DNA from: Octopus sinensis | Taxonomy: Eukaryota | Assembly (NCBI RefSeq): GCF_006345805.1 | Contig: NC_043002.1 | Span: 72,354,001 to 72,418,000, forward strand | Direction: 5' to 3' | Length of the DNA stretch: 64,000 nt | In this document: piece by piece, positions 19,150 to 64,000 of the stretch | Position numbering within the stretch: the stretch's first letter is position 1 | How the letters are laid out: each line of letters starts with the position of its first letter | Notes under the pieces: model-generated | Told to the model about the DNA's origin: nothing | Database searches by the model: none | The model's input: the letters and a program-made list of their open reading frames with translations, nothing else | Position numbers and translations under genes: made by a program

Positions 19150-20380
19150 TTTCTACTCTAGGCACAAGGCCCGAAATTTTGGGGGAGGGGCCAGTCGATT
19201 AGATCGACCCCACTACGCAACTGGTACATAATTTATCGACCCCAAAAGGATGAACAGTAAAGTCAACATGGCGGAATTTGAACTCAGAATGTAAAGACAG
19301 ACGAAATACCGCTAAGCATTTCGCCCGGCGTGCTAAAGTTTCTTATTTATTTATTGCCCTCAAGGGGCTAAACATAGAGCGTCAAACAAGGACAGACAAA
19401 GTAATCAAGTCGATTACATCGACCCCAGTGCGTAACTGGTACTTAATTTATCGACCCCGAAAGGATGAAAGGCAAAATCGACCTCGGTGGAATTTGAACT
19501 CAGAACGTAACGGCAGACGAAATACCGCTAAGCATTTCGCCCGGCGTGCTAAAGTTTCTTATTTCTTTATTGCCCTCAAGGGGCTAAACATAGAGGGTCA
19601 AACAAGGACAGACAAAGTAATCAAGTCGATTACATCGACCCCAGTGCGTAACTGGTACTTAATTTATCGAACCCGAAAGGATGAAAGGCAAAATCGACCT
19701 CGGTGGAATTTGAACACAGAACGTAACGGCAGACGAAATACCGCTAAGCATTTCGCCCGGCGTGCTAACGATTCTGCCGCCTTTAAAAGTAATAATTATG
19801 GCTACTCTAGGCAAAAGCCCTTGAAAATTTTGAGGGAAGGGGACTAGTCGATTACATCGACTCCTGTGCGCAACTAGTACTTATTTAATCGACCCTGAAA
19901 GGATGAAAGGCAAAGTCGACCTCGGCGGAATTTGAAACCAGAGCGAAGCGGCAAACGAAATACCTATTTCTTTACTACCAACAAGGGGCTAAACACAGAG
20001 AGGACAAACAAGGACAGACAAACGGATTAAGTCGATTATATCGACCCCAGTGCGTAACTGGTACTTATTTAATCGACCCCGAAAGGATGAAAGGCAAAGT
20101 CGACCTCGGCGGAATTTGAACTCAGAACGTAGCGGCAGACGAAATACCTATTTCTTTACTACCCACAAGGGGCTAAACACAGAGAGGACAAACAAGGACA
20201 GACAAACGGGTTAAGTCGATCACATCGACCTCAGTGCGTAACTGATACTTATTTAATCGACCCCGAAAGGATGAAAGGCAAAGTCGACCTCGGCGGAATT
20301 TGAACTCAGAACGTAGCGGCAGACGAAATACCGCTAAGCATTTCACCCGGCGTGCTAACGCTTCTGCCAGCTCGCCGCCT
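19150..20380 (-). mobile_element. tandem array of six tRNA-derived SINE family A units (Meta-domain-like centre)
   Basis: Head GGCGGCGAGCTGGCAGAA, box B GAGTTCAAATTCC, centre GCCTTTCATCCTTTCGGGGTCGATAAATTAAGTACCAG. Other copies at about 7360-7560, 12695-12860, 14416-14570, 17840-17990, 27050-27240, 40255-40485, 41997-42213, 42907-43147, 50237-50467, 58005-58505, 59160-59560 and 63080-63420. Confidence 0.9.
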
Positions 20381-57968: not shown

Positions 57969-58793
57969 CACCACACATATATATATATATATTCTATAAA
58001 TAATCTTTTCTACTGTAAGCACAACTGGTACTTAATTTATCGATCTCGGCGGAATTTGAACTCAGAACGTAAAGACAGACGAGATACCTATTTCTTTACT
58101 ACCGACAAGGGGCTAAACACAGAGAAGACAAACAAGGACAGACAAACGGATTAAGTCGATTACATAGACCCCAGTGCGTAACTGGTACTTAATTTATCGA
58201 CCCGGATAAGGATGAAAGGCAAAGTCGACCTCGGCGGAATTTGGACTCATAACGTAGCGGCAGAGGAAAAACCTGTTTCTTTACTATCCACAAGGGGCTA
58301 AACACAGAGGGGTCAAACAAGGACAGACAAACGGATTAAGTCGATTATATCGACCCTAGTGCGTAATTGGTACTTATTTAATCAACTCCGAAAGGATGAA
58401 AGGCACAGTCGACCTCGACGGAATTTGAACTCAGAACGTAGCGGCTGACGAAATACTGCTAAGCATTTCGCCCGGCGTGCAAACGCTTCTGCCAGTTCGC
58501 CGCCTTATATTCTGTAAATAATAGCAATAATATTTTTATAAGCTTATAAGCGATCACCGAGCATAAGATTTAAGCTTATAAAAATATTATTGTTATTTAC
58601 AGAATTGTAAAAAAATCGACGCTTCTTACCAAAGACCGTCGCATATGTGTGTGTGTGTGTGTGTGTTGTGTGTGGTGTGTGTGTGTGTGTAATATTTAAT
58701 TTTAAAAAAATTATGTTATTTTAAATTCGTCTTCCACACACTCTCACCGACCTATATCCATATCTACTGTATGCACACACACACACACACACA

Positions 58794-58826
<33 letters not shown>

Positions 58827-60191
58827 ATGCTACTAACTTGCTCGCCTCACTCGCTCACACATACATCACTCACATAAATACAAAAACACAGAGGCACCAA
58901 ACACCAACATACACACACACAGATACACACTCACTCACGCACACACACACATACACTCACAAGCCATTTTCACACACACACATATATATATATATATGTA
59001 TGTATGTATGTATGTATACTTATACTTTTCTGATTTCTATGTTTGCTCAAGAATACCACATGCCGCTCAGTCCAGGAATCGAAACCATGACCTTGCGAGC
59101 GTGAGTTCAACAACCTTGTGGCTAGGCCACGGCCTTCATTTTGTGTATGAGAAACGTAATATTAATTTCAAAATTTTATGCCAGAAAGGCAACTTTGGAG
59201 CGGGGAGGGATTAAATAGATTACATCGAGCCCAGTGCGTAACTGGTACTTATTTAATCGGCCCTAAAAGACTGAAAGGCAAAGTCGACCTCGGCGGAATT
59301 TGAACTCAGACGAAATACCGCTAAGCATTTCGCCCGGCGTGCTAACGATTCTGCCAGCTCACCGCCTTTATGAGAAACATATTATTGGTTTCGAATTTTA
59401 GCTTAAAGTCCAACAATTTGGGGATAAATCGAATACATCGACCTAGTGTTCAACTGCTAAGTCAACCTCGGCAGGTTTTGAATTAAGAACGTGAAGACGG
59501 ACGAACTGCCGCTAAGTGTTTTGCTTAGCATGCTAACGATCCTGCCAGCTCGCCGCCCTATAAGGAGCATAATATTTTGGAAGGAAAGAGAGTGAATATA
59601 CTCGATAGATTAAACGAGAATTTCCTGACAAAGTAGAGTCCAAATTCTGATTTCAATACTTGATAAACCCGTTGCCATTCAGTTATGTCTCTGATGTTTT
59701 TGGAAACATGTATGGAGAGAGACAACTTCCTGTTTCTTTTCCACAAAAAGTACAAATTTTTTCGTAACTTATTAAAATATACCGATACTGCGAGAATGAA
59801 ATCAAACCCAATAAATTCCTTTGCCGGGATGAAAATAAGACTATTGGAAACAACGATGTGTTACAAAGGGGCGCGGACGAGAGAGAACAATCGATTATAT
59901 CGACCTCGGTAGTTGACTTGTACTTATGTTATTAAACCCCAGAAGGATGAAAGGCAAATTCGACATCTGAGGGATGTAACTATTGTATAAGGAAAACTAT
60001 TTCACATACAATTCTTTCGTGATTTTTAGGTCTTATTTGTAAAAGACTTTACTCGAGATTCAGTTCGGTGGATTTGTCGATTTTCTTTTTTCAAAATCCA
60101 TGGAATGTTTCGTTTCTTCTTTTTATCTGAATTCCAATAAAGGAACTTTCGTTTTTGTTTAGAAACCGCCCGTTTCTTTATAAAAAGAATG

Positions 60192-60341: not shown

Positions 60342-60343
<2 letters not shown>

Positions 60344-60950
60344 TAAACAGTAAAAATAATTACAGACATGGACAAGAACATGAAACACCACAGAGACGAC
60401 ACAAGAACCACAGGACGGGACATTCGAAGCCCTCAGTCATCAGTCAAGAACCAGATCATCTTAGCAATTTCGGCTGATTAATCTTGAGATTGCTCCGATA
60501 TGGGCAGCCCGCCAAGGGAAATCTAAGCCAAGCGCATTAGATCCCCTGGAAGAAAGCTTCGAATGTATACAACACGAGGACGGAAAACGAACGAAGTACA
60601 CGAACAAAAATACAGAATACGTGACACCAATAAGAATACAAAAACGTAAAAACAATAACGGTAAAAATAAAAAACAAAACAAAACCAGGACGTAGGACAA
60701 GGGTCTTTCGACAGGACGAGTTGAGTATGGGGCTGGCTTGTGAAGTTGTGCCTAATGGCCGCAGGGAGACGAACAAATACGTGTTGCTTCGGCGACTGCT
60801 GGAACGAAAAGAGCGCTCAACAGCGGCTAGCGGTCACGTGAGAACAAAAGACAGGAGAAAGGGACAGATGGAAAGGGACAGATGAAAAGAGAGAGAAGGT
60901 GGACGAGGGAGGAGAAGAAAGAGACAGATCGAGGGGGCTGGAGGTGAGAG
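60342..60950 (-). mobile_element. (TA)n-embedded non-autonomous element with a structured RNA domain (60420-60566)
   Basis: Flanked by (TA)n; 11-bp closing stem plus internal helices and the hammerhead core strands. Confidence 0.6.
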
Positions 60951-62351
60951 AGATATATATATATATACATATATATTATATAAACATATGTATACACGCA
61001 GAGAGACACTTTCACATACACACATACACAAAGTAACATTTGTATTCCGTTCCGTGTATGATGGCTCCGCATCGAAATTGCTACTGAGATGGGTCACTGT
61101 TGTTGATATTTTAGTCCTCGTGTCAGACCACTTGGAGTCATCCTATAATTTAAGGCGTTCCAACCATGACCAACCGTTTTTTTTGTTTTTTTTTTTGTAT
61201 TTAGTGTTCAGACATCGAACACAACGTTATCTTTTCAAAAATTTAAGCATCATTTTCCCTGCGGCTATATTTAAGCTCTTCTTTAGCTTCTTCCAGATGT
61301 TTTTGTATTGGTTCTTTCCCTTTCGTTCCATATTATACAAAGTAATGCCACGTGGGTGAAAAGAAGCTTGAACGTTCCTATTTCCAAGTTCTTCAGCTGC
61401 GCAATATCCTTCCAGTTGACCAGTTCATATTGGTGGACACTTCAGATTTCGAAAGGCCGATCAGTCTACTCTTTCTACTACTACTATATTTTTATAAGGA
61501 AAGCAGTGCCCAAGGTCCCTTAAGAGGACATTCGAGACTAGATGGAGAAGAGGGAACCCTTAAACGGGAAACCTAGCTCGAATGCTTGCAATCGAATGGA
61601 TTCCATTAGAGCGGGTAGTGGTGTTAAACAGGGCGACGGACAACGTGTACCACCCAACAAGGCCAAGGAGTCTGAACAAAAACTGATTAAATTTGATCCG
61701 ACGTTCTAACAACTCCATCAACCAACCACCATAAGTTGGTATATCGTTATCGAATTGAGCCTGAAAGGATGTAAAGCAAGAAAGAAAAATGAAAAGAAAC
61801 ACGAGACTTGAACTCAGAGTCTCTCTTCCCCTATATAAATATATATATATATAAGAAGTTTTAACCGACACTTTAACAACCCGGCTAATTCACCACCTCG
61901 TTTCAGGGCGATAAAGTAAATTTGATCTGCTATTTTAGTTCCCAAACTTAATAACTGCCGTGATGCATATGATTTTTATAGACAATATACAATTACATTT
62001 AGTTGTTTAATTGGAGTTCATGTTGTTATATTTCGCACCACTAAAATGTTGTAAATCTTTAAATACCAGTATCGGCAGATTAGCTGTAACGCTGTTTTCC
62101 TATCTTTTGTAATTAATCCGCTATTCTATAGACATTCTTGGCCCGACTCCAGATTCCAGATACTATATTTCTATTTTATAGCTACAGTAAAATAAATAAA
62201 TAAATAAATAAATAGATAAATAAATAAAGTTAAAAACTAAGGTGAAAGCTTTCAAAAATATATATATTAGATTAAGTAGTCTTGACGATTTAGATTGAAA
62301 ACCGAACTCTTTAAATGAATTAGGGATTTACTTCGAGATCGACCACTGGCT

Positions 62352-62457
<106 letters not shown>

Positions 62458-63563
62458 TCTGCTTATATGAATGATTTCTTGTAAAATACGTAAATTTCGT
62501 TTGAAAACATCGCTTTTTATATTTATTACTTTACTTCTACTAAAGCTTGTTCAGGAGCGGAAAAGACGTTTCTCAACCACTTTGCTTATAAATATTATGA
62601 AGACGAAATATAAACAAGATAAAGTTTGCAGGGGAGAATGTCAAACACCTCAACGCTGCGTGAATCCTGGTAATTGTAAATATTTGCCTTGTTTGTTTTT
62701 TCGATCATAGCTATTATTGTGTATAGTAATTTCAATTAAGGATATCAACTGTTTTTTTTATTTTTTTTTATTTTTGTCAAAGAATATACATATAGATACA
62801 TCTATTCATGAAACGCCATCAAATGGCCTTTTCTGACATGTAAATAATGTTTGCCTCCGACTAATCTCCCACCATGAGGTTCAATTTGAAATACGGTAGG
62901 CATGTTTTTATTTGAATACCAGTCTTTAAAGGATTGTTGAAACTGGTGTAATGAAGGGAATAGCTTCAAAAGGTAAGCCGCGTAGCTCTAACGAAACATT
63001 ATTTACGTCATTCTTGTACAACATATTTCCCAGAGCAAAACGTTCTCTTTAATCAACTTTATAACCGTGTGATGATATTCCTTTCTACTATTAGCACAAG
63101 ACCGGAAATTTTAGGGGAGTGAGGCGCGTCGATTACGTTGACCCCAGTGCTCAACTGGTATTTATTTCATCGATCCAGAAAGGATGAAAGGCAAAGTCGA
63201 TCTCAGGGGAATTTGAATTCAGAGCATAAATTCGGAAGAAATTCTACCAACGATTGCCTGCTAACGATTTTGCCAGCTCACCGCCTTCAACTGCATGATA
63301 ATACCGTTTTCTTCTGGCGAGAAGTCGGCCGAGCTGGCCGAATCATTAGAACACCGGGCAAAATACCTAACGGCATTTCGTCCGTCTTCATGTTCTGAGT
63401 TCAAATTCCACTGAGGTCGACGCTACCAAATCCACTCACAAGGCTTTGGTCGGCCTGAGGCTATAGTAGAAGACACCTGCCCAAGCTGCCACGCAATGGG
63501 ACTGAACCTGGAGCCATGTGGTTGGTAAGCAAGCTACTTACTACACAGCCACTCCTACGTTTA

Positions 63564-63877: not shown

Positions 63878-63971
63878 TCTCTGGACTATGCATAGTTTCG
63901 ACAAACCTTGTAAACAAATTAATTAAATTAAATTAAATTTATTTACAACTGGCGTGTCTCGTCAGCAGAGA
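63878..63971 (-). ncRNA. canonical type I hammerhead ribozyme in a Penelope-like element (63657 to window end)
   Basis: UCUCUG-CUGACGA-GACA..UUGUAAAUAAAUU/AAUUUGUUUACAA..UGUC-GAAAC-UAUGCAUA-GUC/CAGAGA; all core nucleotides and helices intact. Confidence 0.9.
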
Positions 63972-64000
63972 AGCCGAGGACGAGAATATGTCCACGAGGC

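Follow-up and report, generated by a model that had tools for sequence, protein, structure and literature searches.

A predicted reverse-order hammerhead ribozyme with an opened core in a Penelope-like element of Octopus sinensis, and its probable kinship with Naiad retroelements

The locus considered here raises the question of whether a hammerhead ribozyme can operate when its strands follow an order foreign to types I, II and III, and, if so, how its catalytic core would be assembled and which genetic element would carry it. It lies on the minus strand at positions 60420 to 60566 of a 64,000-nucleotide (nt) stretch of the Octopus sinensis genome (NCBI RefSeq assembly GCF_006345805.1, contig NC_043002.1, positions 72,354,001 to 72,418,000), here termed the window, and it belongs to a copy of a Penelope-like element, which we refer to as family A. 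Our analysis makes it very probable that the motif is an ordinary hammerhead core in reverse order, cutting after C 60488, in which two extra helices, P0 and P1, replace the usual link between A9 and G10.1. This reading draws upon the strands themselves, the covariation among related copies, the 5' ends of genomic insertions, and the recurrence of the same layout beside the open reading frames (ORFs) of Naiads, a clade of animal retrotransposons. The features of the window copy are as follows, with percentages referring to alignment cells.

60342..60955, minus strand: solo, 5'-truncated copy (~614 bp) of the non-autonomous Penelope-like unit, family A, with (TA)n on both sides
60552..60566, minus strand: 5' strand of the closing stem P0 (helices 1-2, 96.0% and 91.5% paired, 3 pairs changed on both sides)
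60512..60549, minus strand: P1 hairpin, preceded by the P0 5' strand and followed by the stem II 5' strand
60505..60509, minus strand: predicted stem II 5' strand GGCUG, displaced upstream of the cleavage strand, with G10.1 at 60509
60497..60503, minus strand: 5' strand of the I-II joining helix (the circled-I helix of Eckert et al.), with 1 mismatch in the window copy
60489..60494, minus strand: stem III strand AGCAAU, its last base being U16.1 (92.1% paired, 2 pairs changed on both sides)
60488, minus strand: C17, with the predicted cut at 60488/60487; 5' ends of genomic copies accumulate from 60487 onward
60482..60487, minus strand: stem I strand UCAAGA (93.5% paired, 3 pairs changed on both sides)
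60472..60481, minus strand: 5-nt linker UUAAU and predicted stem II 3' strand CAGCC (60476-60472), with C11.1 at 60472
60463..60471, minus strand: core G12-A13-A14 and stem III strand AUUGCU (GAA-AUUGCU), with A15.1 at 60468
60451..60457, minus strand: 3' strand GAUCUGG of the I-II joining helix, pairing with CCAUAUC
60437..60449, minus strand: stem I strand UCUUGA and core CUGAUGA (C3-A9)
60420..60434, minus strand: 3' strand of P0, following A9 after a 2-nt link and occupying the usual place of the stem II 5' strand

An earlier, sequence-only reading of this locus had proposed each of the minus-strand hammerhead elements, their order (cleavage strand, GAAA, CUGAnGA, or S>G>C) and the resulting need for a pseudoknot, and all of these were found in place. 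The window motif contains CUGAnGA, GAAA and UH together with the A15.1-U16.1 and G10.1-C11.1 pairs; a 10-nt link precedes GAA and a 13-nt link precedes UCUUGA, while N7 of CUGAnGA takes all four letters across subfamilies. The closing stem had been given as 11 bp, and it extends to 15 bp when G-U pairs are counted. The proposal that the topology is undescribed did not survive, because S>G>C is the type SGC of Eckert et al. 2023, for which cleavage has been shown in vitro (PMC10085705). SGC ribozymes possess a fourth helix that links stems I and II at their distal ends (same source, accessible text); the pairing of CCAUAUC with GAUCUGG, which had been noted correctly and left without a full identity, is this helix.

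Using our own descriptor, which accepts the three hammerhead blocks in any order and a stem II partner anywhere nearby, the motif scores 42 with its cut placed after C 60488, and none of 15 dinucleotide shuffles of the whole window yielded a match of 42 or more on either strand. The real window contains four matches of at least 30, namely this motif, a type I hammerhead at 63884 and two weak matches of 37 and 38. Rfam returned nothing at gathering level in the window and, near the motif, no ribozyme family up to E = 10, only microsatellite-driven matches. The S>G>C order departs from the cyclic C>G>S order of types I to III, and the lack of any match to the Rfam hammerhead models bears out the earlier expectation that descriptors of those types would miss the motif. 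Folding of the 151-nt domain gave z = -3.4, with 1 of 200 shuffles equally good.

The host element was characterized from its copies. Family A is a young, ORF-less, (TA)n-targeting family with a unit of 778 bp (length taken from a natural tandem, L017), and the fixed 3' end of the window copy lies at ~60342. There are 1,712 repeat candidates in the octopus genome, with 98-100% identity among the 40 scored, and a 29-mer from the 3' part has 1,203 exact genome matches (control 0). Twenty flanked copies share the ORF-less unit and a 3' end that is constant against (TA)n; they are truncated to varying extents at the 5' end and form partial head-to-tail tandems, and inverted 5' copies occur as well (L028, L282). 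This insertion pattern is the one reported for Penelope-like elements (PMC8557442, accessible text), and the combination of fixed 3' end, 5' truncation, head-to-tail tandems, inverted 5' copies and a microsatellite target confirms the link to such elements that had been suspected from the window. Older sister subfamilies are represented by 1,453 candidates for B and by 422 pattern matches for D/E/F, versus 1 in the control.

The insertions also hold a record of the RNA from which they were made. We mapped 81 5' ends from the 5'-most copy of 80 consecutive family-A insertions (the full list for contig C1 plus the first five from C2), with the 3' 29-mer as the sole selection criterion; one locus was inverted and one end censored. 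Measured from the predicted cut, 23 ends have offsets of 0 to +13, three of them exactly 0, and among the remainder 8 lie at +14 to +50, 1 at -14 to -1 and 8 at -100 to -1. The 5'-end hazard is 0.027 per nt after the cut versus 0.002-0.003 elsewhere, the interval starting at offset 0 has the highest hazard of all 14-nt intervals, and nine equally TA-rich control intervals gave 9 events in 3,554 exposures (p = 2e-10). The cut after C 60488 foreseen by the sequence-only reading is thus the site placed by our descriptor and the site from which copy ends pile up. Similar ends were found in subfamily B (7/30 at the cut) and in D/E/F (6/19 at the cut, 0 just upstream, with 7 loci being their own references), both sets having been selected by score or pattern. 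Because 23 of 81 ends fall just after the predicted cut versus 1 just before, the pile-up is likely a footprint of cleavage in living cells; the spread of ends to +13 would fit run-off followed by joining to (TA)n at the linker. Furthermore, ends at the cut occur in 1 of 13 upstream tandem copies versus 22 of 60 solo copies (Fisher p = 0.051), a hint of read-through templates lacking cut ends, as a ligated circle would be. An assembly of four sequencing runs gave contigs, which show neither ends nor strand; one ending at 60487 was set aside as a further cut end, since the subfamilies differ at 60488 and branching explains it.

The same ends might be explained if the fold is right and the ribozyme is slow or protein-dependent, or if it serves mainly as a signal for binding or initiation by the reverse transcriptase (RT), with the pile-up reflecting stalling or joining to (TA)n at the UUAAU linker. 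There is a precedent in the anole Poseidon hammerhead, which cut only with protein, was dispensable for insertion in vitro and had no RNA-seq reads ending at the cut (PMC11167929, accessible text); in our own data, most pile-up ends fall at +5 to +12, in or just after the TA-containing linker, and the 49 of 81 ends upstream of the cut imply that most templates are read through. However, the excess ends sharply at offset 0 (23 versus 1), equally TA-rich intervals, including an ATAT 11-14 nt upstream, remain at background, and stalling would be expected at the 3' edge of P0, the strongest helix, where no excess is seen. The catalytic core letters are also kept, whereas N7 and N17 vary. Among 80 family-A insertions selected solely by the 3' 29-mer, substitutions affected 1 of 925 core cells and 19 of 1,817 cells in stems I-III, versus 124 of 4,917 and 143 of 4,469 in the flanks, with N7 and N17 as the variable core letters. 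We therefore consider a slow or protein-dependent ribozyme, or one serving mainly as an RT signal, improbable and retain cleavage as the likely source of the footprint.

How the core is closed depends upon stem II. The sequence-only reading had considered this helix weak and had offered CUGA/UCAG with a CC bulge or GGCU/AGCC, neither of which is the best supported. From 42 distinct extracted sequences, we hand-picked 21 complete copies of six subfamilies for a covariation alignment, dropping truncated, deleted and near-duplicate sequences. The full pseudoknotted model with upstream GGCUG pairs 92.3% of cells, and in 13 of its 46 pairs both sides have changed; on four of five measures, none of 500 shuffles scored as high, and slid controls of the model paired 23-49%. 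This shuffle test is support rather than proof, because related sequences can beat such a shuffle without structure. The upstream stem II itself (GGCUG 60509-60505 with CAGCC 60476-60472, 5 bp) pairs in 95.2% of cells and retains G10.1-C11.1 in 21/21 sequences, and the I-II joining helix pairs in 88.4%, with one pair showing an A-U/G-C exchange. As the upstream GGCUG is the best supported partner, the backbone is predicted to be opened between A9 and G10.1 and bridged by P0 and P1.

A plain type SGC ribozyme, with stem II formed from the bases directly after CUGAUGA and an unbroken core strand, would dispense with this opening. The downstream GGCU is able to pair with AGCC in 89.3% of cells, the HRIMA-1 descriptor has a 1-nt insert at the same position (PMC10085705, accessible text), and a switch between two stem II partners is possible in the family. 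However, CUGA/UCAG pairs in 67.9% of cells, no better than shuffles, and was rejected as helix II; GGCU/AGCC was rejected as well, its bases belonging to the covarying 15-bp closing stem P0 and its use leaving C11.1 without a partner in 6 of 21 sequences. In the Naiad relatives described below, moreover, 14 of 16 matches have their best stem II partner upstream, with 4-6 bp and unrelated sequences. An unbroken SGC core is very improbable on these grounds, and the opened core remains our preferred model. Still further from the evidence is a ribozyme acting as a dimer or across neighbouring tandem copies with its strands meeting canonically: type I hammerheads of Penelope elements with a palindromic stem III reportedly cut as dimers, many copies here stand head-to-tail (17 of the 81 ends sampled) and the stem III strands are self-complementary in L153 and L161, but however strands are drawn from consecutive copies, the stem II 5' strand never comes to stand immediately behind A9, the P0 clamp and a 1-5 nt stem I-II linker close the domain within one copy, family A lacks a palindromic stem III, and solo copies have the strongest pile-up, so that we give this arrangement next to no credence.

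Which element supplies such a ribozyme was approached through the Naiads. These have been reported without canonical hammerheads, some being labelled 'HHR_core' or 'HHR_half_core' (Craig et al. 2021, PMC8557442, accessible text). Like family A, they target (TA)n, form partial head-to-tail tandems and inverted 5'-truncated copies, and carry a ribozyme core near the 3' end. We scanned the published Naiad consensus file by eye around CUGAnGA, covering 58/62, 30/43, 15/23 and 15/25 places for four spellings and 33 header contexts. In the entries seen, the split layout occurs in 10 of 54 families (Bfor, with a short stem I, 3_Chem, Amil, Aacu, Anas, 2_Movir, Plae, EuTe, Obim and Ovul), an intact hammerhead of the related permuted order CSG occurs in 6 nematode entries, and ~6 arthropod entries have the core with longer inserts. 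A pattern from the octopus Naiad consensus (the split motif of Naiad_Obim/Naiad_Ovul) has 285 exact matches in the O. sinensis genome and none in the control.

A second line of evidence comes from metagenome loci. Starting from L078, a decayed RT fragment upstream of an octopus-type 3' untranslated region (UTR), protein searches led to a 38-protein alignment, and the best 80 of 395 Naiad-related loci were scanned. A reverse-order hammerhead is present in the sense 3' region of 16 of the 80, comprising 14 split SGC forms, 1 CSG and 1 CSG with two hairpins between A9 and G10.1; one further match lies upstream of an ORF (17 in all). The antisense strand and the ORF part (161,620 nt) gave 0, 40 shuffles gave a mean of 0.075 and a maximum of 1, and no canonical-order hammerhead was among the 3' matches of the 16 loci. 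Stem sequences are unrelated across the 17 loci, the stems themselves being demanded by the descriptor. Features that it did not require recur nonetheless, with G10.1-C11.1 in 16/17, the joining helix at p <= 0.02 in 14/17 and the P0+P1 junction at p <= 0.02 in 14/15. In L205, the same two helices appear as closed hairpins, without a linker, in an unbroken chain, equivalent to the split form with P0 capped. L205 (3023-3120) and, by eye and with a stem III mismatch, L211 are CSG forms with the two hairpins directly between A9 and G10.1. Rfam gave no gathering-level match on 20 Naiad-related loci, 8 of them motif-bearing.

The proteins of these loci show features of Naiads. An N-terminal GIY-YIG lies at residues 59-158 in 4/4 full ORFs scanned from motif-bearing relatives, two of them below the Pfam cut-off, and DK[AGT] precedes the RT in 15 of 17 motif-bearing loci. 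A quick RT tree of 76 rows scattered the motif-bearing loci across several branches, and we draw no order of events from it. In the octopus genome itself, 20 loci were fetched, 17 of them Naiad-like, and in 5 of these 17 the motif of family C, an old subfamily, follows degraded Naiad RT sequence of the same strand at a distance of 0.8-1.1 kb. Family A has no ORF; hence the N-terminal GIY-YIG, CxC and DKA that define Naiads are not visible on it, and it is at most a non-autonomous Naiad dependant.

Several other sequences were encountered along the way. In L146, an RT fragment has a family-A-like motif 1 kb upstream, which proved to be a separate truncated insertion. L133-L135 encode fairly intact Penelope-like ORFs with a C-terminal GIY-YIG beside (CA)-rich repeats and carry no split motif within the stretch fetched; they represent a second, younger Penelope lineage in the octopus genome, which could also act in trans. 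Many Naiad-like RT proteins (P0071-P0119) match PF00443 (ubiquitin C-terminal hydrolase), and the motif-bearing loci L162, L186, L187 and L191 have a long C-terminal extension.

A number of observations weigh against the picture assembled here. Folding is its main weakness: the minimum-energy nested fold of the window copy (-53.4 kcal/mol) retains P0 and stem II without stems I and III, constraining the fold to contain stem III and the joining helix gives -45.3 kcal/mol with the pseudoknot helices uncounted, and misfolding or a need for protein help is possible because the best nested fold excludes stems I and III. The fifth whole-structure measure did not beat shuffles (274/500). Stem II is nearly invariant within the octopus genome, with 1 of 5 pairs changed on both sides in one sequence, and among the examples from this genome the joining helix reaches p <= 0.02 in 2/8 (p = 0.24 for the window copy) and the junction in 5/8. 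The conservation of core and helices above their flanks, anticipated by the sequence-only reading, stands when counted by cell and, for the core, becomes borderline by site (1/13 core sites vary versus 64/181 flank sites, p = 0.064). Among the footprints, 4 of 30 subfamily B ends were called at -14 to -1, two of them ambiguous due to microhomology or inversion, and in old family C no such accumulation is seen, the only 2 calls among 20, at +5 and +7, looking by eye like divergence or deletion. Eckert et al. assumed that CUGAnGA and its two neighbouring stem strands form one block interrupted by at most 1-2 nt (PMC10085705, accessible text); the predicted split form would contradict this assumption. 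With regard to the Naiads, L202, one of the 14 split matches, is probably misparsed, no match in the 3' region was obtained for 64 of the 80 loci (the 3' sequence being shorter than 250 nt in 18 of the 80), a relaxed descriptor added nothing on 51 of the 64, and 10 of the unmatched loci have a twister-like motif in its place. In the octopus genome, one protein query revealed no intact Naiad ORF (96 of 2,221 candidates scored, 20 loci read), and a 27-nt pattern for the Naiad ORF start had 0 matches; consequently, the tie between family A and Naiads rests on the motif, its place ~95 nt from the 3' end, and (TA)n.

Weighing both sides, we consider it probable that Naiads carry their own lineage of reverse-order hammerheads, in intact CSG and split four-block forms, spread across comb jellies, corals, nematodes, crustaceans and octopuses. 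They would supply the hammerhead 'missing' from the clade and be the first ribozymes of non-circularly permuted order in animal genomes, cutting in the germ line, with a record of this in the 5' ends of hundreds of insertions, and occupying a 3' UTR slot that twister-type ribozymes fill in other Naiads.

In this reverse-order model, the RNA would fold 5' to 3' through P0, P1, the stem II 5' strand, the I-II helix, stem III, C17, stem I, the linker, the stem II 3' strand, GAAA, stem III, the I-II helix, stem I, CUGAnGA and again P0. P0 and P1 would act as a two-helix insert keeping A9 next to G10.1, and because the insert would hold these two residues together, the catalytic core would be an ordinary hammerhead core. 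Hammerhead cleavage yields a 2',3'-cyclic phosphate and a 5'-OH. By analogy, the in vitro cleavage of SGC ribozymes with the same four helices (PMC10085705, accessible text) argues that the split form may cleave as well. The element would be transcribed through head-to-tail copies, and the ribozyme would shorten the transcript at a point 146 nt upstream of the fixed 3' end. Acting in trans, a Penelope-type RT/endonuclease, probably that of a Naiad, would nick (TA)n and begin reverse transcription at the fixed 3' end; internal initiation at AT-rich targets has been demonstrated for the anole element (PMC11167929, accessible text). On cut RNA, the RT would run off at the cut and leave copies of ~130-146 bp, as for the 23 of 81 sampled ends, whereas uncut or re-ligated circular RNA (~778 nt) would be read through to yield long and tandem copies such as the window copy. 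The circular intermediates are a tentative element of this scheme, somewhat less likely to be real than not.

If this reading is true, non-circularly permuted hammerheads, so far rare finds in metatranscriptomes, would become a regular component of an animal retrotransposon clade, which would explain why Naiads seemed to thrive without hammerheads. The split form would break the stated rule that the CUGAnGA block is uninterruptible, calling for wider descriptors, and would mark A9-G10.1 as a natural place for inserting helices beside the core. The step in the 5' ends would be rare genomic evidence of a Penelope-type hammerhead cutting RNA that is actually reverse transcribed, of which the in vitro Penelope study gave no sign (PMC11167929, accessible text). 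Moreover, the role of ribozymes for Penelope elements, be it trimming, circles or mere passengers, becomes testable with a 147-nt RNA and with genome data alone.

The Naiad 3' UTRs contain other structured motifs. A twister-like stem-loop (GTnnCAAG closed by a stem) occurs in the sense 3' UTR of L156, L166, L169, L174, L176, L182, L185, L192, L195 and L221, all without a hammerhead (antisense 0, shuffle mean 0.55), and in most of these GAGG and a T[TC]AA stretch stand before it. A sub-gathering match to Rfam Twister-P5 was obtained for L156 (28.7 bits, E 0.044), and similar motifs were seen by eye in the consensus entries Naiad_Mley and Naiad-1_Movir and the bivalve Naiads Bpla, Mphi, Scon and Mmer. 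The Naiad 3' UTR may accommodate a ribozyme of either class. A further motif with CCGGAGCAC is common to the 3' UTRs of L164, L178, L183, L184 and L190, where neither a hammerhead nor a twister-like match was found, and related text was seen by eye at the 3' ends of the oyster and ark-shell entries; this is a candidate third structured RNA and possibly an unknown self-cleaver. Lastly, sub-threshold matches to the selenocysteine insertion sequence (SECIS) lie just after the ORF in L166, L169, L176, L182 and L185, the ORFs of the branch being stop-interrupted under table 11, and these are likely further selenoprotein Naiads. Elsewhere in the window, an abundant dispersed repeat forms tandem arrays with periods of 184-216 at 19193-20332 and 58040-58453, with further copies at ~59200-59560 and 63100-63290.

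The known hammerheads of non-LTR (long terminal repeat) retrozymes and Penelope elements are of type I with small stems II and III. The window holds a canonical type I hammerhead in another repeat (63879-63975, minus strand, cut after 63884), with a CUCUG/CAGAG stem I, CUGACGA, a long A/U-rich stem II insert and a palindromic stem III ACUAUGCAUAGU; it has no Rfam match at gathering level, has an inverted partial copy just past the window end, and looks like the usual dimerising Penelope-type form. Non-LTR retrozymes resemble family A in being short, ORF-less tandem units with one hammerhead each that are proposed to be non-autonomous Penelope derivatives (bioRxiv 10.64898/2026.07.22.740005, accessible text). 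Their hammerheads are given in canonical terms, and the accessible preprint text uses neither 'SGC' nor 'pseudoknot'.

Among known permuted hammerheads, the closest relatives of the window motif are the SGC ribozymes. According to the accessible text of Eckert et al. (PMC10085705), permuted types are known from metatranscriptomes and none from the genomes of known organisms, except one GCS candidate. The window motif is like HRIMA-1 and the SGC variants in block order, intact core letters, a short stem I-II linker (5 nt) and the joining helix. It differs in that SGC ribozymes have the stem II 5' strand joined to CUGAnGA with at most one extra U, whereas here this strand is predicted upstream, with P0 and P1 as an insert, and in that its source is a high-copy animal retroelement rather than metatranscriptomes. 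Since block C is predicted to be broken (the SGC stem II 5' strand follows CUGAnGA after 0-1 nt), the motif would be SGC-like in its working and outside the type as defined by Eckert's descriptor. Type CSG, known from two metagenome sequences (PMC10085705, accessible text), shares with the window motif the reverse cyclic order and the joining helix; in the window motif, the circle is broken elsewhere, within block C. Intact CSG is represented by L171 and the six nematode consensus sequences seen by eye, and L205 is a CSG with a two-hairpin insert. Only short core insertions are described in the accessible text of Perreault et al. 2011 (PMC3088659), and our searches of the open-access literature turned up neither a description of permuted hammerheads in Naiads nor one of a split A9-G10.1 form. 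The novelty of the present system would lie in the opened A9-G10.1 link, the animal retrotransposon clade that hosts it, and the genomic footprint of its cutting.
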